A program made the translations under genes and the position numbers. 64,000 nucleotides of DNA, taken from contig CAAGHO010000049.1 in assembly GCA_900769695.1 (NCBI GenBank), positions 11,347 through 75,346 on the forward strand, given 5' to 3'. Shown piece by piece: positions 2,092 through 51,163 of this stretch. Origin of the DNA: Bacilli bacterium (GTDB lineage: Bacteria > Bacillota_I > Bacilli_A > RF39 > UBA660). The notes under the pieces were generated by a model, which saw only the letters and a program-made list of their open reading frames with translations, was not told where the DNA came from and did not search any database. Within the stretch, counting starts at the first letter, position 1. Each line of letters opens with the position of its first letter.

Positions 2092-2679
2092 ATGGAAAAT
2101 GTTGTAATTGGACTGGATATGTCAACGAAAAGTTCTGGATATTCAGTTTTTAAAAATGGTAAATTGATAAAATTTGGCGTTTGGAGACAGAAGCAAGAGA
2201 TAGCTTGGAGAGAACGTTGTATATATATGGGGAATGAGTTATCCACGCTATTGGACACTTATTCCCCATATTTTATTTATTGTGAAGATACAATTTTAAG
2301 TGGTGAATGTGGTAATAATGTACAAACAGTAAAACAATTATCAGTGTTACAAGGAATCGTATTAGGTGTTTGTGCTGTACATAATGTAAAAATAGAATTT
2401 CTTATGCCTAGTAAATGGCGTAGTGATTTGGGCGTTTATGATGGTACTAGAGATGGAACCAAACGCCCAGTAATGAAATGGAAAACTATAGAAAAAGTCA
2501 ATCATATTTTTGGGTTGGAATTGTTTTATGATTTAGACAAACCTAAAAGCGTGAAAAATGATGATGATATTGGAGATGCTATTGGAATAGCATGGTCGCA
2601 GATTAAACCTACTGAAACAAGTAAGGGATTTGGTAAAAAGCCAAATATAAACGCTAAGAAAGGTAGGTGTAAAGGTTAA
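2092..2679 (+). CDS. RuvC-like Holliday junction resolvase
   Basis: VIGLDMSTKSSGYSVF (first Asp), YCEDT (Glu) and NDDDIGDAIGIAW (Asp pair) match RNase-H-fold RuvC resolvases of Gram-positive phages. Confidence 0.7.
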   Translation: MENVVIGLDMSTKSSGYSVFKNGKLIKFGVWRQKQEIAWRERCIYMGNELSTLLDTYSPYFIYCEDTILSGECGNNVQTVKQLSVLQGIVLGVCAVHNVKIEFLMPSKWRSDLGVYDGTRDGTKRPVMKWKTIEKVNHIFGLELFYDLDKPKSVKNDDDIGDAIGIAWSQIKPTETSKGFGKKPNINAKKGRCKG

Positions 2680-3322
2680 TGGCAATGAATAGTAGTAACT
2701 TCCAGATACTTGTAAATGCGGTATTGGATGCAAAAAATATTCAAGCACAATTAGATAAGATAAGTCAAAAGTACGCAACTATGAAAGTTGGTATTGATGT
2801 AGATACAAGCAAACTTAATAGTGCGTTAAGTGGACTTAAAGGTTTAAAAGTTGGATTTGATGATACAAGTAGTAGTGCAGATAAGACTTCTCAGAGTATT
2901 GGTGATATATTTACTAAAGTATCTAAGTTTGGTGGCGTAACACTTGTTATTAATGAGTTAAGACAATCGTTAATGGACGGTGTAGATGCTGTTAGGGAAT
3001 TAGATGCCGCTGTTACTGAATATAAGAAAGTATCTGATTTAACAGATGAGGGAATGAAAAGTTTTGTAGAAGATGCTAGAGAATTAGGACTTGAAGTAGC
3101 CCGTACCGGCGAAGAAATGGTATCTGGAGCTGCTGAATGGAAAAAAATGGGATATTCTGACGCAGATAGTTTGCAACTTGCAAAAGTAGCGGCTGTTTTA
3201 TCCAATGTAGCTGATGAAGCATTAAGTACCGCAGATGCTTCTTCTATTTTAAACTCTCAATTAAAAGCGTTTAAATTAAATGCTGATGATGCAATGAGTG
3301 TTGCTGACAAAATCAATGAGGT
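2679..3322 (+). CDS. tail tape measure protein, exon 1
   Basis: ATG overlaps the ruvC-like stop (TAATG); ..GGVTLVINELRQSL..AAEWKKMGYSDADSLQLAKVAAVLSNVADEALSTADASSILNSQLKAF..ADKINEV is a typical TMP N-terminal core; ORF then hits a stop at 3327 inside the proposed intron. Confidence 0.8.
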
Positions 3323-3414
3323 AGAATAACTTGCCTTTGAAGAACTATATCGGTTAAAAGCCAGAAGTGGTTAAGACCGAGGAAAGATTTTAATAAAAAA
3401 TAAGGAATTACATA

Positions 3415-3443
3415 TTGCAAAAATATTTGAAACATAGTATAAT
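3415..3443 (+). promoter_or_regulatory. sigma-A-type promoter inside the intron, upstream of the endonuclease ORF
   Basis: TTGCAA-17 nt-TATAAT. Confidence 0.55.
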
Positions 3444-3463
3444 AAAGTCTATAGAAGAAAAAT

Positions 3464-4606
3464 ATGGAGGTAGATTATACTATGGAATATTGTACGAAAT
3501 GTAAAATAAGAGAAGCAACTTGTAAACACAAATGTAAATTTTGTAACTATATTGACCGTAGAAAAACAGATATTGGTAATATAATAAAAGAGGGATTTTG
3601 GTCTGAAAAAGAAATTCATTTTATTATAGAAAATCTTATTTATGGTAAAATTGATATTTTGAATGATTTTTTACCGTATTTGGATGATAATAAAACTTTG
3701 GATGATTTGGTAATTTTAGTTAATACTACTATGAAAATCAGGGGACAGCTGACTTATAAAGTAAGAGTAAAATGTTCTGTGTGCGGAAAAGATTATTTAA
3801 TTTCTCCTTCAAGATATTTACGAACAAAGAAAAATAAATTGAATTTTTATTGTGATTTTGAGTGTAGAAATAAAGGATTTAAAATTTTTGGTTCACATGC
3901 CAATGAAAGAAATAGTCAATATAATTCAGAATGGACAAAATGTTCTATGTGTGGTAAGAAAATTTTACTTCCAAAATATAAAAGAGAACAGAAAAATAGA
4001 TTTGGAGATAATCACACTTTTTGTTCCCAAAAATGTTATTGGAATTTTCGTTCAAAATATTATGTTAAAGATAAAAATATGAATTATGGTATTAAATTTG
4101 ATGAAGAAAGATTGGAAGAAATGAGAAAACAAACTTCTAAACTTCACAGTGAACATTTATATTCGCAAACACAAACAAAAATTCAAAAAATAATAGTTGA
4201 TTTATTAATTAATAATGGTATTAACTATCAAGAGGAATATTTTTTAGGAGAACAATCTTTAGATATTTATTTATCAGATTATAACTTAGGTATAGAAATA
4301 AATGGAGATTATTGGCATACAAATCCTATTAAATATAAATCAGATGATAAATTAAGTAAACAACAATTAAAGCAATTCACTTATGATTTAAAGAAATATA
4401 ATTATTCGTTAGAGCATTTTCCAATATTATATTTATGGGAAAATGATATAAAGAATAATTTAAAATTATGCGAATTATTAATAATGTTGTTTATAAAAGA
4501 AGGACAATTAAAAGATTATAATAGTTTTAATTATACTTTAGATGAAGATAAAATTAAATTAAATACAAATATTATTATTCCTTATTATTTATTAAAAAAT
4601 CCGTAA
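3464..4606 (+). CDS. intron-encoded homing endonuclease: N-terminal zinc-ribbon repeats plus C-terminal Vsr/DUF559-like PD-(D/E)xK nuclease domain
   Basis: Repeats CSVCGKDYL..FYCDFEC and CSMCGKKIL..TFCSQKCY; C-terminus ..NGINYQEEYFLGEQSLDIYLSDYNLGIEINGDYWHTNP..ILYLWENDI fits the D..E.xG..WH layout of Vsr-like nucleases; alternative start ATG 3482 after GGAGG. Confidence 0.55.
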   Translation: MEVDYTMEYCTKCKIREATCKHKCKFCNYIDRRKTDIGNIIKEGFWSEKEIHFIIENLIYGKIDILNDFLPYLDDNKTLDDLVILVNTTMKIRGQLTYKVRVKCSVCGKDYLISPSRYLRTKKNKLNFYCDFECRNKGFKIFGSHANERNSQYNSEWTKCSMCGKKILLPKYKREQKNRFGDNHTFCSQKCYWNFRSKYYVKDKNMNYGIKFDEERLEEMRKQTSKLHSEHLYSQTQTKIQKIIVDLLINNGINYQEEYFLGEQSLDIYLSDYNLGIEINGDYWHTNPIKYKSDDKLSKQQLKQFTYDLKKYNYSLEHFPILYLWENDIKNNLKLCELLIMLFIKEGQLKDYNSFNYTLDEDKIKLNTNIIIPYYLLKNP

Positions 4607-4794
4607 CGACTACAGGACTTTTGTGGTAACATAAAAGTTGAAGTTCTTCCTTGCTTAAAAAGTAAGTAATATATAGTCTGAACCTTGCGATATAACTAAA
4701 CAAGAAACGCAAGAATAAGGTAGAAATTCCTTATCGCCATAAATATTTTATGGTCAGTATCTTTAATTTTAATTAAAGAGAAAGTAACAGAAAG

Positions 4795-7700
4795 AAGCAA
4801 TGATTTTGCAGTATCAAGTAGTGATATTTCAAGAGCATTAATGACTGGTGCTTCTGGTATGGCAGCATTAGGTAACTCATTAGATGAAACAATAGGTATA
4901 ATTTCTAGTGTAGTTACTGAGATGCCGAACCAAGCCAGCAGAGCAATTCGTGGTATTCAGTCATACGGAAACGCTATAGCAAAATTAGCAAATGATTCTG
5001 GTGAATTGAGTTATAAAGTAGATGGAGTTACTAAATCCATATCCTTATTAGATAGTACAACAGGAGATATTAAATCCACATTCGCAGTATTATCAGAAAT
5101 AAATAAAGACTGGAATAAAATGTCTAACGCTGAAAAACAAGCGTTAGGTTTAGCATTAGCAGGTAAGAACCAGTTCGCAGTATTTGAGGCGTCTTTAAAT
5201 TCTTTTGATGTTGCTTTAGACGCAACTGAAAAAGCGTTGGGTTCTACTGGTTCAGCACTTAAAGAAAATGCACGTTATCTTGATTCTATTCAAGGTAAAG
5301 TATCTCAGTTTACCTCAGAATTAGAGAAGTTTTGGACTGAGGGTATTTCCTCAGATAGTGTAAAACGCCTTGTAGAATTTGGTACGCAAGTATTAAAACT
5401 TATTAATGATTTAGGCGGTATGCCCACTGTACTTACTGCTATTACAGGTGCTTTTATTACTCTTAATGGACATAAAGTACCAGAAATGATAGCAAAAATA
5501 TCTACAAATGTTTTAGACATGATTGCTAAATTTGATTATGCTTATGCCGCTACAGGTTCTTTAGCACAAGGATTTACGGCTATGGCAGGTGCAGGTAGTT
5601 TATTAACTGCAAGTTTAGGTGCAGTATCACTTGTTATTACTGGACTTGTAGCCGCTTATAGTTATTATAATACTCAACAAGAAAACGCAAGAAGAGCCGC
5701 AGAACAAGCAGGTAGTAGTTTTGAAGATGAAAGAAAAAATCTTTATAATTTAAGACTTGAATATATTAATGCTAAAGAAGCTACAGGTGATGAAGATGAA
5801 AATAAACAAAAGTTAAAATCTACAATTTCTAAACTTGCTAAGGCTTACGGTATTGAAGAAGAAGCACTATCAAATTTGAACGGAACAAGAGCAGAAGGTT
5901 TAGATTTACTTAGTAAAGAAAATGCTGAAAAATCACAAGATTTTTTGAACAGAAATCAAGCTGAAATTCAGAAAGCACAAAAAGCAACACAGGATATGTT
6001 AAATAGAACTTCATTTTACATTCCTTTAAAATTTACTTATGATACTGAATCCAGTGAATCTTTTAAGGCGTTTTATAATAAATATACACAGAGTTTGGGC
6101 GAAGGCGTTTATAAAGCGGCAGGTGGTTATAAAGAATTAATAGCGGATTTAAACACTACTATTACCGCAATGCAACAAGAAGATAATCAAACAAAATTAC
6201 ATCAGCAAACTTTAGCGTTCTTAAGTAATACTCTTGTTGAATTAGAGGATAAATATAATAAAACTGCTACACTTACAAGAGAAGCCGCTGACGCAACAGT
6301 TGATGTTGATAAAAAGACGCAATCTTTTATAAATACTCAATATAATAGCCTTAGTTCCTTTGAAAGTGTATACAATGCGTTGCTTGAAAATAATTCGCAG
6401 ATTCCGTTGTTTAAAGAAGCGTTAGATGAAGTTGTTGCTACGCAATTCCCAGATTTTGCAAAAGCATTAGGAATTGAATTACAAGATAATGGTGATAAAG
6501 CAAAAGAAGCCGCTGATGGCGTAAATCAATATGGCGAAGACGTAGGTGAAGCCGCTTCTCAAACAGAAGAATTTGAAAAAGCTATTAAAAGTCTTACTTC
6601 AGAATTAAAAGGCGTTCAAGACGCTTATGATACTTTACATGAAGTAGCAGACGAATACAATAAAACTGGTAGTGTTACAATAGATACAATGGCTGATTTA
6701 TTATCTTTAAACCCAGAATATCTCAATTCTTTACAAATGGTAAATGGTCAATTAGTTGTTAATGATGCTTCTTTAATGTCAATGGCACAAAGCTTTACTG
6801 AAAGTGGGATTTCTGCTATTTCTAGTTCACAAGGATTAGATACTTTTAGTGAAAGTGAGCAAAAAGTTGGCACAAACGCAGAAACAGGGAAACAAGGTTC
6901 TGATAATTTAGGAACTTCTATTCAACAAGTGGGAACAGCAAGTTCACAAGCAAATCCTTATTTAACAACGATTGGTAATACAGCTATAACAACAGGCAAC
7001 CAATTTGCACAAGGAGCGCAAGGAATTTTACAATTTGCTTCTAGTTTAGATGCTGTATCTGGTGCCGCACCAAAAGCTAGAACAGGCAGTAGCGGTGTTG
7101 GTGTTCAATCTTACTCAGAAGGATTTGACGCACAAGTTCAAGCTTACCGTAATCAACAAAATCAAAAACTTTTAGAGGAATTGAAAAAAGGATTACAATT
7201 TAAACCTTCTACTTCTGGTAGTAAAGGAGGTAAAGGTGGTGGTTCTAAGAAATCCTCAACCTCAGATGCAGAAAAACAAGCAAAAGCAGACGCTAAAGCA
7301 TATAAAGAAGCATTTGAAAAAGAACTTGCTACTTTAGATAAACAAAAGGTTTCAATGAAAGATAATGCCGCTACAGATAAATGGTATTATGAACAGCTTG
7401 AAGAACTTACAAATAAATACTACAAAGATAAAGAGGGGTATGAGGATGAATATAACAAGTACCATGAGAAAGCCTTAGACGGTATGACAAAAGCCCATGA
7501 TGCGGCTTATACTGAGCGTTATAACCTCTTAAAACATCAACTTGCTATGGATATGATTTCTGAACAGGAATACTATGACGAACTTGAAGAATTAATGAAA
7601 GAGTTCTATAGTAATGAAGAAAAATATGGCGAACAGCGTTGGAAAATTGAGGAAGAGATTTATTCTGGAAGAAACAAACTTGAAGAAGAATCTACGAGAA

Positions 7701-8812
7701 AAGCTGAACAAGAAGCCGAAAAACGTAAGAAAGCACGTAAAGAGGAATGGGAAGAAGAAAAGGAATGGTATGAGGAACAACAATCTAATCTGGAAACAGC
7801 GTTTAATTATGTTGCTTCATTAGCACAGAAAGAGATTGATAAACTTAATGAGCGTAAACAAGCTATTCAAGACCAGTATGACGCTGAGATTGACAAGATA
7901 AATGAGAAGAACGATGCAACAAATGATGAAATTGAACTACAAGAAAAGTTAGATGCTTTAGCAAAAGCACAACAAAAGAAAGTAAGAATTTATAGAGAAG
8001 GAGAAGGTTTTGTCTATGAAACTGACCAATCTGCTGTAGATGAAGCCAAATCTGCTCTTACACAATATAAGAAAGAGCAAGACACTAAGAAAGAGATAAA
8101 ACGTCTTGAAGATATTCGTGACGCTACAATTAATTCTGTTGAAGAACAGATAAAATACTGGGAAAAGTACAAAGATGAATGGGGTAGTGTTACAGATAAT
8201 TATACAACTGAACAGAACAAACTTCTTGCTGAACAAGTATTAGGTATTAGTTTAGAGGGTGAAAACTGGGAGAAACGTCTTGGTAATCTTCAAGATTATG
8301 TAGATAGATACAATGAAATAATGAGTACACTTAAGACAAGATATAAAAGTTACGATGATGATGACGATGAAGATTTTGGTGACGAACTTGACCCAGATGA
8401 ATATTATTCTGATAAAGAACCTAGTTATTCTCATGGGTCTGGTGGTGATAACTGGTATGAAGATGATACTTCACATGGCCCGGGGGCTTATGCAAACGGT
8501 ACAACAAAAGGTTATGGTTTATCTATGGTTGGTGAAAAAGGTCGAGAATTAAGAGTTCTTGGTTCAAGGTCTAATGAGGGTGACGGTATTATTCCTAATC
8601 ATTTGACTGAGAATCTTATGCAACTTGGTAAATTCTCACCTACACAATGGTTAAACAGTATTGTAGGAAAAATGGGTGGACAGTCTGCACCTATTTATAA
8701 CTACGCTTTTGAAAATCTTACATTACCAAATGTTACCAACGCACAATCATTTATTGACGAATTAAAGAATTTAAAAAACAGAGCATTACAGATGGGTGGA
8801 AGGAGAGATTAA
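4795..8812 (+). CDS. tail tape measure protein, exon 2
   Basis: (V)SNDFAVSSSDISRALMTGASGMAALGNSLDETIGIISSVV.. TMP core, TM-like Gly/Ala segment, long charged coiled coil, C-terminal ..GYGLSMVGEKGRELRV..; exons 644+4018 nt = 1554 codons. Confidence 0.8.
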
Positions 8813-8869: not shown

Positions 8870-9724
8870 ATGCAAAATTTATACAACAATAAAGGAACCG
8901 ATGTTAAGCGAGGGAATAGTAGCCTTGATGCTAAAACATGGGATATAAATAAAGAAATACTTGAAGCTATGAGAATTATTGCAAAACAGGAAGTTAATAA
9001 AGCACCTAGAGATATTACTAAAACTGGTTTGATTAAAAGTTTAAATTCTGATGGTACATATAATGTTGTTATAGATAATAAAGAATATAGCAGAGTTCCT
9101 AGTTACTCTGTCGCAAACTTTAAGATAAATGATATTGTAAAAGTCACATACCCACAAAATCAAGCAAGTAATATGTATATAAGCGGTGGTGGAAGTAGCA
9201 AATCTGGTGGTATTAGTGCTTTAGATGTTTATCCTATTGGTTCAATTTATCTTTCTTTGGTTGCTACTAATCCTTCAACTTTTTTTGGTGGAAGTTGGTT
9301 GTTAATAGGACAAGGAAGAACTTTAGTAGGCGTTGACACTAATCAAGATAGCTTTAATCAAGCAGGAAAACTGGGCGGTGTGTATAGTAATGATTATACT
9401 CACGCACACACAACGCAAAATCATGTATTAACAATAAATGAAATTCCAAACCATCAACATGGTATGGATGGCAATACAAATATTATAGCAGTAAAACATG
9501 GCTCTGCGGCACCTAATGAGTTTTCTCCAATTTCGACTAATAATGGTTTTCAAATTCATAACAACGGTGGTTGGTTTAATGATTGGAGCAAAGGTACTAT
9601 TACAACTACATTAGGTGAAGGTGGAGGACAAGGACATACACACGGAGATGTAACATTGACAAAACAAACTATTTCAACTGTACAGCCATATCTTTGTTGT
9701 TATATTTGGCAAAGAACATCTTAA
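8870..9724 (+). CDS. tail/baseplate protein with tail-collar-like C-terminal domain
   Basis: ..YPIGSIYLSLVATNPSTFFGGSWLLIGQGRTLVGV..LTINEIPNHQHG..GQGHTHG resembles phage tail-collar receptor-binding domains with HxH motifs. Confidence 0.5.
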   Translation: MQNLYNNKGTDVKRGNSSLDAKTWDINKEILEAMRIIAKQEVNKAPRDITKTGLIKSLNSDGTYNVVIDNKEYSRVPSYSVANFKINDIVKVTYPQNQASNMYISGGGSSKSGGISALDVYPIGSIYLSLVATNPSTFFGGSWLLIGQGRTLVGVDTNQDSFNQAGKLGGVYSNDYTHAHTTQNHVLTINEIPNHQHGMDGNTNIIAVKHGSAAPNEFSPISTNNGFQIHNNGGWFNDWSKGTITTTLGEGGGQGHTHGDVTLTKQTISTVQPYLCCYIWQRTS

Positions 9725-9744
9725 AAAGTAGGTGATTAAATTTT

Positions 9745-10869
9745 ATGGTAACTAAACCGATATTATATTCAATAAATGCATTTGATGCTTCTCAAAAGTC
9801 AACATTTACATTCTATTCAACTGGTGGTAATCAAGTTGTAAAGAACCAATTAACAATTCGTAACAATACCACAAACCAAGTTGTATACCAACAGTCTGTG
9901 GACTCATTTAAGTTTGAGCATACTGTTCCACCTAATACATTAACTAATGGTACATATTATAACGCTTATGTAACTACTTATGACGCACAAGGCGAAGCAA
10001 GTAGTCCAAGTGACCCTATACAGTTTTGGTGCTATACTCAACCTACAATAGAGTTTACCAATTTACCTGCAAATAATATTATCAATTCTTCAAGTTTTTT
10101 ATTTGAGTTTACATATAATCAGATTGAGGGTGAATTATTAAACTATTACAATGTGATTTTATATAATTCTAACCATGTTGAAATTAATAACAGTGGTGAG
10201 ATTTATGGTGGTCAGAGTATTAAACCACCAGTAACTCAAACTTATTTATTGACTGGATTAGATGATAAAGCAACTTATTACATTGAAATCAAGGGTTATA
10301 CTATTTATGGAACTTATGTAACAACTGGTGAAATATTAATCACTGTTACATATTCCAGTCCAACTGTGTTTGGTATTCTTGGTTTGACTAATGATTGCAC
10401 TAATGGTTATATCACTGGTGAAAGTATTGTTAGTATTATTGAGGGTTCAAGCAATCCAGAAGAACCAATATATATTACTAATGTAGACGGTAAAGAAATT
10501 GATTTAAGACCAGACGGTTACTGGGTAAAGTGGACAAGTGGTTTCCAATTAAACGGAGATTTTACGGCTCAATGGTGGTTTAGAGATATGAACGTAGACA
10601 CACCAATCTCATTTTTTACTAATTCACAAGGTCAAAAGATTACGTTTACTTATAGGAACGGATATTATAGAAATGAAACAGAACTTAAAGCCTATGTAGA
10701 TATGACTGTGGACAGTGGTATTGCAGAAGATGTTTATTATAGATATTCTCAATATATTCCATTACCACAAAATACAGATTATCTTACTTTATGGGTGAGA
10801 AGAATAGGAAATGTTTATAATATTTCTTTGATAAATTTAGGTAGCGTAATTCCTACTGCAACAAATTAA
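9745..10869 (+). CDS. tail/baseplate structural protein with FN3/Ig-like repeats
   Basis: 374-aa ORF with good RBS in the post-TMP block; beta-rich Thr/Asn/Tyr composition; position-based call. Confidence 0.4.
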   Translation: MVTKPILYSINAFDASQKSTFTFYSTGGNQVVKNQLTIRNNTTNQVVYQQSVDSFKFEHTVPPNTLTNGTYYNAYVTTYDAQGEASSPSDPIQFWCYTQPTIEFTNLPANNIINSSSFLFEFTYNQIEGELLNYYNVILYNSNHVEINNSGEIYGGQSIKPPVTQTYLLTGLDDKATYYIEIKGYTIYGTYVTTGEILITVTYSSPTVFGILGLTNDCTNGYITGESIVSIIEGSSNPEEPIYITNVDGKEIDLRPDGYWVKWTSGFQLNGDFTAQWWFRDMNVDTPISFFTNSQGQKITFTYRNGYYRNETELKAYVDMTVDSGIAEDVYYRYSQYIPLPQNTDYLTLWVRRIGNVYNISLINLGSVIPTATN

Positions 10870-10905: not shown

Positions 10906-11838
10906 ATGTTTTCTTTCTTAGGGTACAATTTCGTACAAGACGGTAACAGCCTAGATATTGCACCTACCAGTGTAAATAATGTAACAACAGTTCAAGTTCA
11001 GAACGGTATCTTTGACCATTTTCATTTAACTAGTAATGTAACTAGTGATTATTCACCTATTAAAAATACTGAATGGGCTTATCTTGATATTATTGTTGCT
11101 AATTTTGACGGTAATATCAATGGCGGTAATGTAGATTTCTTACTGCAATATTTGACCGCTATTAAAGTAAAACGTAGAATTAAAGGTACATTTAACTGGG
11201 TTACTTTAAAGACAGTTACAGTAAAAGCATTTGAAGATTTAAACTTTGCTTTTAATGATTATATAGCCGCTAATAATACAGATTATGAATATGCTTTAGT
11301 TCCTATATTGAACGGTGCTGAGGGCGATTATATTACCAATAGTATTACTTCTCAATTCAAGGGCGTATTCATTTGTGAAAAGGATAGTATATATAAATTC
11401 TACGCTGGGGTAGCATATGGTACTGGTAAACGTGTTAAGAAAATAGGAGTGTTTGAGCCTTATGGTAGTAAATATCCAGTAATTGTTGCTAATGCTAAGA
11501 CGAATTATTATAGTAATAGTATTAGTTTTACTGTCTTACCTTTAGATTATGAAAAAAATAGAATAATGGATAGATATGAAATCAATAAATTAACAGAGGA
11601 AATACTAAATTATATCACAGACAATAAAGCGAAAATTATAAAGGACTGGAATGGAAATATTTTCTTAATTTATCCAAGTTCAGAACCAAACATTACATAT
11701 GATAATAACTGGGGTATGGGAAAAATAGATATTTCTTTTGATTACGTTGAGGTTGGTGACGCAAATAACGAAAAAGACCTTATGGAATTTGGATTAGTAG
11801 AACCAGTAGTAAGTGGAGTTTCTACTACTGGAACGTAA
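10906..11838 (+). CDS. tail/baseplate structural protein
   Basis: 310-aa ORF, RBS aggtgagagg; position-based call. Confidence 0.4.
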   Translation: MFSFLGYNFVQDGNSLDIAPTSVNNVTTVQVQNGIFDHFHLTSNVTSDYSPIKNTEWAYLDIIVANFDGNINGGNVDFLLQYLTAIKVKRRIKGTFNWVTLKTVTVKAFEDLNFAFNDYIAANNTDYEYALVPILNGAEGDYITNSITSQFKGVFICEKDSIYKFYAGVAYGTGKRVKKIGVFEPYGSKYPVIVANAKTNYYSNSISFTVLPLDYEKNRIMDRYEINKLTEEILNYITDNKAKIIKDWNGNIFLIYPSSEPNITYDNNWGMGKIDISFDYVEVGDANNEKDLMEFGLVEPVVSGVSTTGT

Positions 11839-50986: not shown

Positions 50987-51067
50987 AGTTTAGTTATCTG
51001 CTACTAAAAACATATACAAATGTGCATATGCTAGATGATTTGCTATAATCTCACGATTTATAGTTAC

Positions 51068-51163
51068 TGTTTCAACGTGTATGCTTTGGTGGTTAAAAGT
51101 AACACACTACTCACAAGTTCTTGTACACTCCACAGTCGTAAATTCCCGACTTAGCCATCGGTA
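51068..51163 (-). other. conserved leader element, copy 1 (in the 445-nt ORF-free spacer)
   Basis: - strand GUACCGAUGGCUAAGUCGGGAAUUUACGACUGUGGAGUGUACAAG..UGUGAG..ACGUUGAAACA; shares ordered blocks with 55373-55436. Confidence 0.45.

Follow-up and report, generated by a model that had tools for sequence, protein, structure and literature searches.

What has split the tape measure protein (TMP) gene of an uncultured gut phage into separate open reading frames (ORFs), and can its two parts still give a single protein? The question is raised by a stretch of 64,000 nucleotides (the window), positions 11,347 to 75,346 of contig CAAGHO010000049.1 in the GenBank assembly GCA_900769695.1. The phage is a siphovirus with a genome of about 100 kb; its relatives include Enterocloster phages, and it has SPbeta-like Yom tail genes. 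The insert that splits its TMP gene (3323..4794, + strand, 1472 nt) is, with a probability of about 0.9, a mobile group I intron of the phage subgroup-IA type that carries its own homing endonuclease gene (HEG). Its limits are given by a U.G pair, a terminal G, a P10 pairing, the restoration of the reading frame and the alignment with uninterrupted TMPs. A first reading made from the letters and their ORFs alone (the sequence-only reading) had already proposed a group I intron spliced at 3322|4795. Continuous homologues, compensatory changes in the RNA and core strands resembling those of the T4 td intron now support this proposal.

An interrupted tape measure gene

As had been described from the sequence, the upstream ORF (2679-3329) ends in ..ADKINEVE* and TMP coding resumes in a frame that is open from 4724. 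The upstream ORF encodes 216 aa and its stop codon lies at 3327-3329, just beyond the end of exon 1 (2679..3322, + strand, 644 nt, ending in ..AAT GAG GT). Exon 2 (4795..8812, + strand) has 4018 nt, its stop codon included. With 3322 joined to 4795, the coding sequence amounts to 4662 nt, i.e., 1553 codons and a stop codon with zero internal stops, and the in-frame fusion calculated by the sequence-only reading is thus recovered. The junction then reads ..INEV|SNDFAVSSSDISRAL.., the predicted junction peptide being ..KINEVSNDFAVSSSDISR and the predicted ligated-exon sequence ..AATGAGGT-AAGCAATG... The first 15 codons of exon 2 (SNDFAVSSSDISRAL) have no start codon of their own, the earliest one in the downstream frame being ATG 4841. 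Because there is no start codon among them, these conserved codons (4796-4840) could be expressed only after joining of the RNA.

The same break is seen in the protein families. The Pfam family PF10145 is split, its positions 2-84 being found at the end of the upstream ORF and its positions 86-201 from nt 4796, which corresponds to residue 25 of the frame opened at 4724. The TMP PHROGs, which are also matched by exon 1, break at the same place. The joined protein gives a single PF10145 match that covers positions 2-201 of 201 with 71.6 bits, vs 35.3 and 22.0 bits for the two pieces.

An alignment with uninterrupted TMPs had been suggested as a check of the splicing. Fourteen metagenomic homologues (e.g., NNVSNNMAVSSSDIS) are continuous across the junction. 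Furthermore, the closest cultured relatives are Enterocloster bolteae phages with genomes of about 100 kb, whose TMPs align with the joined sequence as a single match. For example, the annotated TMP of Enterocloster phage PMBT24 shares 51% identity over 432 aa with the joined protein and runs through the junction without any gap (DKINEVSNDFAVSSSDIS vs DAVNEVANNFAVSSGDIS). At the DNA level, the empty site of PMBT24 reads AATGAGGT|AGCTAATAATTTTGC and the joined exons of the window read AATGAGGT|AAGCAATGATTTTGC. The insertion site falls between N213 and D225, two of the seven residues that are invariant in the alignment of homologues; "a highly conserved motif" is therefore a fair description of the place. 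An alternative 3' splice site at 4797|4798 was rejected, as it would remove a Ser that is present in all homologues.

More than 10 protein clusters, derived from independent assemblies, contain the interrupted allele. It is therefore neither an assembly artefact nor a dead one-off, and an assembly chimera was rejected as an explanation of the interruption. In practice, automatic gene calling breaks this essential tail gene into three ORFs (216 aa, 374 aa and 1323 aa) that are reported as unrelated. Any prediction of tail length and any TMP-based phylogeny made for this phage group will be wrong if the exons are left apart.

A 195-aa ORF (2092-2679, + strand) abuts the TMP start. The ORF located at the same position in PMBT24 is annotated as a RuvC endonuclease, and there are weak RuvC/DUF3882 matches in one relative (L056).

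Anatomy of the intron and expected splicing

The intron is poorer in G+C than its exons (23.8% vs about 35%), and every canonical helix of the window copy is perfectly paired. P1 is a helix of 5 bp formed by GAGGU (3318-3322), the end of exon 1, and GCCUU (3333-3337), with the U3322.G3333 pair at the splice site. At the 3' end of the P1 loop (3323-3332), CUU (3330-3332) pairs with AAG (4795-4797) of exon 2 to form P10, and the last base of the intron (4794) is a G. All these elements, as well as the two P7 strands, lie where the sequence-only reading had placed them.

The core follows in the expected order on the + strand. P3 (3339-3345 GAAGAAC / 4643-4649 GUUCUUC), which forms a pseudoknot with P7, has four pairs with compensatory changes. 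P4 (3350-3355 / 3375-3380) is invariant in the intron family, while P5 (3360-3363 / 3368-3371), connected to it by J4/5 AAAA and J5/4 UAA, co-varies at four of its four pairs. The pairing of P6 (3381-3383 GGA / 4600-4602 UCC) was verified, and P6a (3388-3397 / 4588-4597), whose loop holds the endonuclease gene, co-varies at all eight pairs tested. After J6/7 (GUAAC) comes the 5' strand of P7, GACUA (4608-4612), which pairs with UAGUC (4674-4678). Between the P7 strands are found P7.1 (4617-4624 / 4631-4638), with 8 bp, a GGUAAC loop and compensatory changes in seven of the eight pairs, and P8 (4650-4654 / 4662-4666), whose pairing was also verified and which is followed by J8/7 UAAUAUA. The 3' part, where helices 9-12 of the model co-vary, comprises P9 (4684-4689 / 4708-4713), P9.1 (4715-4720 / 4729-4734), P9.2 (4737-4743 / 4747-4753) and a further hairpin (4761-4768 / 4771-4778), then the conserved AGUAACAG and the terminal G4794.

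An extra element between P7 and the 3' strand of P3 (P3') is typical of subgroup IA. In the window intron, one well-supported hairpin (P7.1, 4617-4638) occupies this place and a second one (P7.2) was not found there. This single extra hairpin points to subgroup IA, IA1 or IA2 alike.

With such an anatomy, the internal guide would pair in the late transcript with the end of exon 1 (P1, with its U.G pair) and with the start of exon 2 (P10). The P3-P9 core would fold around the guanosine-binding P7, and two transesterifications would join 3322 to 4795, leading to a single TMP of 1553 aa.

Intron family and co-variation

Homologues of the endonuclease (45-50% identity) occur in TMP genes that are much more divergent (L056-L060), where their insertion point is identical to the nucleotide, and the non-coding RNA that flanks them is homologous to that of the window. 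Searching for the conserved P3-P4...P4'-P6 strands (AACTATATCGGTTAAA..GACCGAGGAAAGA) retrieved this core pattern from at least 49 contigs of viruses and 17 of bacterial genomes. The bacterial carriers are Thomasclavelia, Lachnospiraceae, Butyrivibrio, Faecalibacillus and others; no Bacillus genome is found among the matches of the core pattern. The pattern was also seen in a metagenome-assembled genome of Candidatus Absconditabacterales (L122, 5860-5906), all other bacterial matches belonging to Firmicutes. This occurrence could be due to a prophage, to a binning error or to a wider host range.

Other members of the family are located 4 nt further downstream in this motif (NEVG|NN..) or in other motifs of TMP genes, and they have matching guide sequences and different nuclease ORFs in P6a. 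Some members are ORF-less, contiguous introns of about 300 nt in which P6a is closed by a short loop.

The same family was observed in the TMP gene of the cultured Thomasclavelia phage TR-TP1 (L110, PQ571309), at about 2665-4150, with the junction ..GAGGAGGGT|GTTGGATGG... In the GenBank record of this phage, the sole annotation at this place is an "HNH endonuclease", flanked by a TMP fragment and a "hypothetical protein"; directly upstream of the TMP fragment, the record has another "HNH endonuclease". When an ORF-less relative was used as DNA query against the phage collection, only two Thomasclavelia phages were matched. Neither megablast with positions 2600-5400 of the window nor sensitive blastn with the 3' part of the intron gave any match in this collection.

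Co-variation was studied in 23 distinct members, which were aligned with MAFFT after deletion of their ORFs and scored on a hand model with pseudoknot brackets. The controls were 3' partners slid by 1-3 columns and 500 shuffles. Standard pairs are found in 91.0% of 1547 cells vs 29-40% in the slid controls, and the covariation score is 0.498 vs at most 0.10. Changes on both sides were seen in 52 of the 72 tested pairs, and none of the 500 shuffles reaches any observed pairing measure. The helices P5, P6a, P7.1, P9, P9.1 and P9.2 co-vary at nearly every pair, and P7 co-varies at one pair (A-U to G-C).

P1 and P10 were left out of this count because P2 varies from zero to two hairpins, which misaligns P1 and P2. 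They were scored instead after each sequence had been anchored at its splice site and guide G. All 23 members retain a P1 of at least 4 bp (at least 5 bp in 22 of them) with U.G at the splice site, and exon and guide change together: GAGGU/GCCUU, GCGGU/GCCGU, CUGGU/GCCAG, UCUCU/GGAGA. P10 consists of 1-5 consecutive bp from the splice site, with at least 2 bp in 19 of the 23 members. A terminal G is found in 23/23, but this count is not independent since only G positions were admitted as 3' splice sites of the relatives, the reading frame deciding between them.

The probable homing endonuclease

The loop of P6a contains an ORF whose maximal extent, 3464-4606, corresponds to the 380 aa announced by the sequence-only reading; the ORF exists but 3464 is probably not its start. 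Translation is likely to begin at ATG 3482, which is favoured because the Shine-Dalgarno sequence GGAGG (3466-3470) precedes it and because the homologues begin there. The gene would thus extend over 3482..4606 (+ strand) and encode 374 aa, with its stop codon UAA (4604-4606) in J6/7.

The earlier proposal of a Vsr-like homing endonuclease is supported by a profile match and a predicted fold of the Vsr / I-Bth0305I type. The Pfam matches, to Vsr, MTES_1575 and YHS with the single sequence and also to DUF559, are all below curated cut-offs, a single-sequence search of the PDB gave only noise, and a search of IMG/VR by the back-translated endonuclease gave only distant relatives of the nuclease domain. 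The PHROGs label is homing endonuclease. Furthermore, a profile built from 19 members of the family gave a match with PDB 3R3P, the catalytic domain of I-Bth0305I (E 1.1e-5). The AlphaFold2 model has a mean predicted local distance difference test (pLDDT) of 86.3 and a predicted template modelling score (pTM) of 0.46, the low pTM fitting a multi-domain protein with uncertain relative placement of its domains. With this model as query, Foldseek puts E. coli Vsr (1CW0, 1VSR) at the top of its list, followed by 3R3P and next by a DUF559-like protein, with a TM-score to the target of up to 0.76. The profile and the predicted fold thus support a Vsr-like enzyme of the EDxHD family.

Four residues, D261, E272, H279 and D302, are invariant in the family, and three of them (D261, H279 and D302) align with D196, H213 and the surroundings of D222 in I-Bth0305I. 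The leading Glu of the motif, E170, falls opposite a position that is not conserved; the invariant E252 and E272 may stand in its place. The N-terminal two thirds of the protein contain three Cys4 modules (C4/C7/C18/C21, C98/C101/C124/C128 and C154/C157/C181/C185) that match the zf-FCS/MYM type. The NUMOD/helix-turn-helix region of the prototype was not matched in this N-terminus, where the Cys4 zinc fingers are found instead. Such an architecture does not argue against membership of the EDxHD nuclease family.

Signs of mobility and possible exon exchange

During co-infection, the endonuclease would presumably cut intron-less TMP alleles near ..AATGAGGT|A.., and repair would bring in the intron along with adjoining exon sequence, a process known as homing. 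The sister contig L001 offers a comparison. It shares 92-94% DNA identity with the window on either side of the TMP core, and its spliced TMP likewise has 1553 aa. L001 is devoid of the window intron and carries, 123 codons further on, a different insertion of 1392 nt (9015-10406) with another nuclease ORF, which follows ..LALAG. The breakdown of identity is confined to one patch (window 3100-5248 vs L001 8422-10490) that consists, in each of them, of exactly 677 nt of exon plus the respective intron. Within this patch, protein identity is 34-56% (five windows of 50 residues). Co-conversion of flanking exon during homing would leave such a trace, as would the exchange of a cassette bounded by nucleases. 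The window and L001 thus make a clean case of intron-linked exon mosaicism.

Another contig from a close relative of this phage, L004, has an insertion from 8769 to about 10017, after ..ITAG, and another one from about 10053 to about 11340, which follows a mini-exon of about 35 nt encoding VEIMPNQSARIVRG. The intron-like insertions of L001 and L004 contain nuclease ORFs and have cores unlike those of the window family; no Rfam group I match was found in these two contigs at E<=1.

Weighing the explanations

Several points count against a functional group I intron at this locus. The window copy has no P2, and its L5 is GAAG, most relatives having GNRA loops. The Rfam covariance model RF00028 (Intron_gpI) gives no match on the window, either at its gathering cut-off (50 bits) or at E<=10, and none on three of four ORF-less relatives. 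In the co-variation analysis, the aligned members were chosen by the conserved core pattern, so that P4, P6 and most of P7 are invariant and uninformative, and P8 is paired in only 62% of the cells of the MAFFT alignment, owing to length variation. Catalysis and splicing in vivo are themselves deduced from the anatomy and the family comparison.

The "own promoter" of the sequence-only reading is part of the same list. The sequence TTGCAA-17-TATAAT (3415-3420 and 3438-3443, + strand) is present upstream of the endonuclease gene, but promoter-like sites are no more frequent in this AT-rich region than expected by chance (37 found vs 33.5 expected). At the same place, L058 has TTGACA-17-TATAAT and L057 has no promoter-like site. 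An independent transcription of the endonuclease gene from this site would be a guess.

Some of these points can be put into proportion. L057 is likewise without P2, and the P2-less form is therefore a conserved variant. The missing RF00028 match carries little weight because the proven T4 introns td and nrdB score 40.3 bits (E 9.5e-08) and 35.7 bits with this model, also below its cut-off. RF00028 thus has a low sensitivity to phage IA introns, and the 1.1-kb ORF in P6a lowers it further. The absence of any covariance-model hit, which the sequence-only reading would have taken as a refutation, is real in the literal sense and uninformative given this calibration. Moreover, one ORF-less member of the family gave 22.1 bits (E 0.0012 in a 341-nt search), and the register of the match is that of the hand model for P1, P4, P5, P6, P8 and J8/7. 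The J6/7-P7 and J8/7-P7' strands of the window (GUAAC-GACUA, UAAUAUA-UAGUC) can be compared with AGACUA / GAUAUAGUCu in the RF00028 consensus.

Phage genes split by endonuclease genes exist. The TMP gene could accordingly have been split by a free-standing homing-endonuclease cassette, its halves being translated separately into a two-piece tape measure with no splicing. The stop codon of the upstream ORF (3327-3329) and the presence of a promoter-like site and of a complete ORF in the insert would fit such a situation, and most HEGs are indeed free-standing (Barth et al. 2023, PMC10448857). However, the 15 conserved codons 4796-4840 would then be left without a start. The first available one is ATG 4841, upstream of which no obvious Shine-Dalgarno sequence was seen by eye, no systematic scan having been made. 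Furthermore, the 329 nt of non-coding flanks form a complete group I core that co-varies across the 23 relatives, and a guide sequence that changes with each host exon would be superfluous in a mere cassette. This explanation is very improbable.

A second alternative is a decayed relic that no longer splices, the TMP gene being a pseudogene in a defective phage or a prophage remnant. It would agree with the lack of an Rfam match and of P2, and with a function predicted only from sequence. Nevertheless, no mispairing is seen in any core helix, the endonuclease ORF is uninterrupted and has kept its catalytic residues, and both exons are open over 1553 codons. The same allele is also seen in many independent assemblies, and the P2-less form recurs in L057. 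A relic is thus very improbable. The last alternative, another intervening element, is practically negligible, nothing but the interruption of the gene speaking for it: an intein was rejected since the exon-1 frame meets many stops within the insert, and a group II intron or an insertion sequence since there is no reverse-transcriptase, maturase or transposase domain and the boundaries and helices are those of a group I intron. A mobile group I intron with its own HEG remains the explanation that we retain.

The Rfam searches also gave results for other RNAs. In an IMG/VR contig (L097), the TMP-like gene that holds a family member has another group I intron, from a different family, about 290 nt further downstream (10161-10534; RF00028, 45.3 bits, E 1.3e-8). 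In the window, the sole above-threshold Rfam match is a full-length RAGATH-18 RNA (51064-51136, - strand; 74.3 bits for a gathering cut-off of 44.9, E 4.6e-13).

Significance of the intron family

Whether this family is a previously undescribed IA intron lineage, specialised in the TMP genes of gut Firmicutes phages (Lachnospiraceae, Thomasclavelia and others), seems to us evenly balanced. Such a lineage would have colonised at least five conserved TMP sites by retuning its guide. It would swap Vsr-superfamily endonuclease genes in P6a, including a new EDxHD form with three zinc fingers. It would also move with exon cassettes of about 0.7 kb, close phages carrying alternative "alleles" of the TMP core, each with another intron. 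The even odds hold for these features taken jointly with the lineage itself.

It should be emphasized that TMP group I introns have already been published and that the window intron is an ordinary new example, which opens no new question. What it adds is incremental: the size and host range of the family, its unannotated presence in cultured Thomasclavelia phages, the zinc-finger EDxHD architecture and the clean mosaic pair. It provides a well-resolved example, within a sizeable family, of group I introns and homing endonucleases that target the most conserved stretches of phage structural genes.

Comparison with known systems

The td intron of phage T4, which belongs to IA2 and encodes I-TevI, has the same order of helices as the window intron. 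Both have an extra hairpin between P7 and P3', an ORF looped out of P6a and a UAA in J6/7 (..UAACGACUA). Their core strands are also close: J6/7-P7 is CCGUAAC-GACUA in the window ("CCGUAACGACUA") vs CCUAAC-GACUA in td ("CCUAACGACUA"), and J8/7-P7' (..AUAUAGUCUG) is UAAUAUA-UAGUCUG vs GAGAUA-UAGUCUG (GAGAUAUAGUCUG). Outside these core strands, there is no detectable overall sequence similarity between the two introns. Moreover, td has a P2 and two hairpins (P7.1 and P7.2), whereas in the window intron P2 is missing and a single hairpin is present. The host genes differ (thymidylate synthase vs a structural tail gene), as do the endonucleases (GIY-YIG vs Vsr-like/EDxHD).

For the endonuclease, the reference is I-Bth0305I, the prototype of the EDxHD (Vsr-like) homing endonucleases, which is found in a phage group I intron and whose N-terminal DNA-binding part contains NUMOD motifs and a putative helix-turn-helix (Taylor et al. 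2011, PMC3239194; PDB 3R3P). The window enzyme would share with it a C-terminal Vsr-like nuclease domain with the conserved Asp, His and Asp. It differs by its three Cys4 zinc fingers and by a sequence identity of only about 15-17%.

The sequence-only reading considered introns to be unusual in a gene that determines tail length, which was overstated in view of two published cases. In prophages of the B. cereus group, IA1/IA2 introns (TMP-IVS1/2/3) occupy three conserved sites of the TMP gene. Related ribozymes retune their P1 and internal guide sequence for each site, and some of them carry HEGs while others do not (Tourasse & Kolsto 2008, PMC2504315). The window family follows the same pattern of adaptation to sites and of variable HEG content, in a different host clade. 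In the Vibrio phage ICP1, a TMP intron that contains a HEG was found by RNA-seq and reverse transcription PCR to be spliced to a full-length TMP, and the authors describe TMP as a "frequently interrupted gene" (Barth et al. 2023, PMC10448857). ICP1 differs from the window phage by its Gram-negative host and its endonuclease of the HNH-3 type. Nevertheless, ICP1 isolates vary in their HEG content and their HEGs mark the boundaries of genetic exchange (PMC10448857), which resembles the mosaic patch that distinguishes the window from L001.

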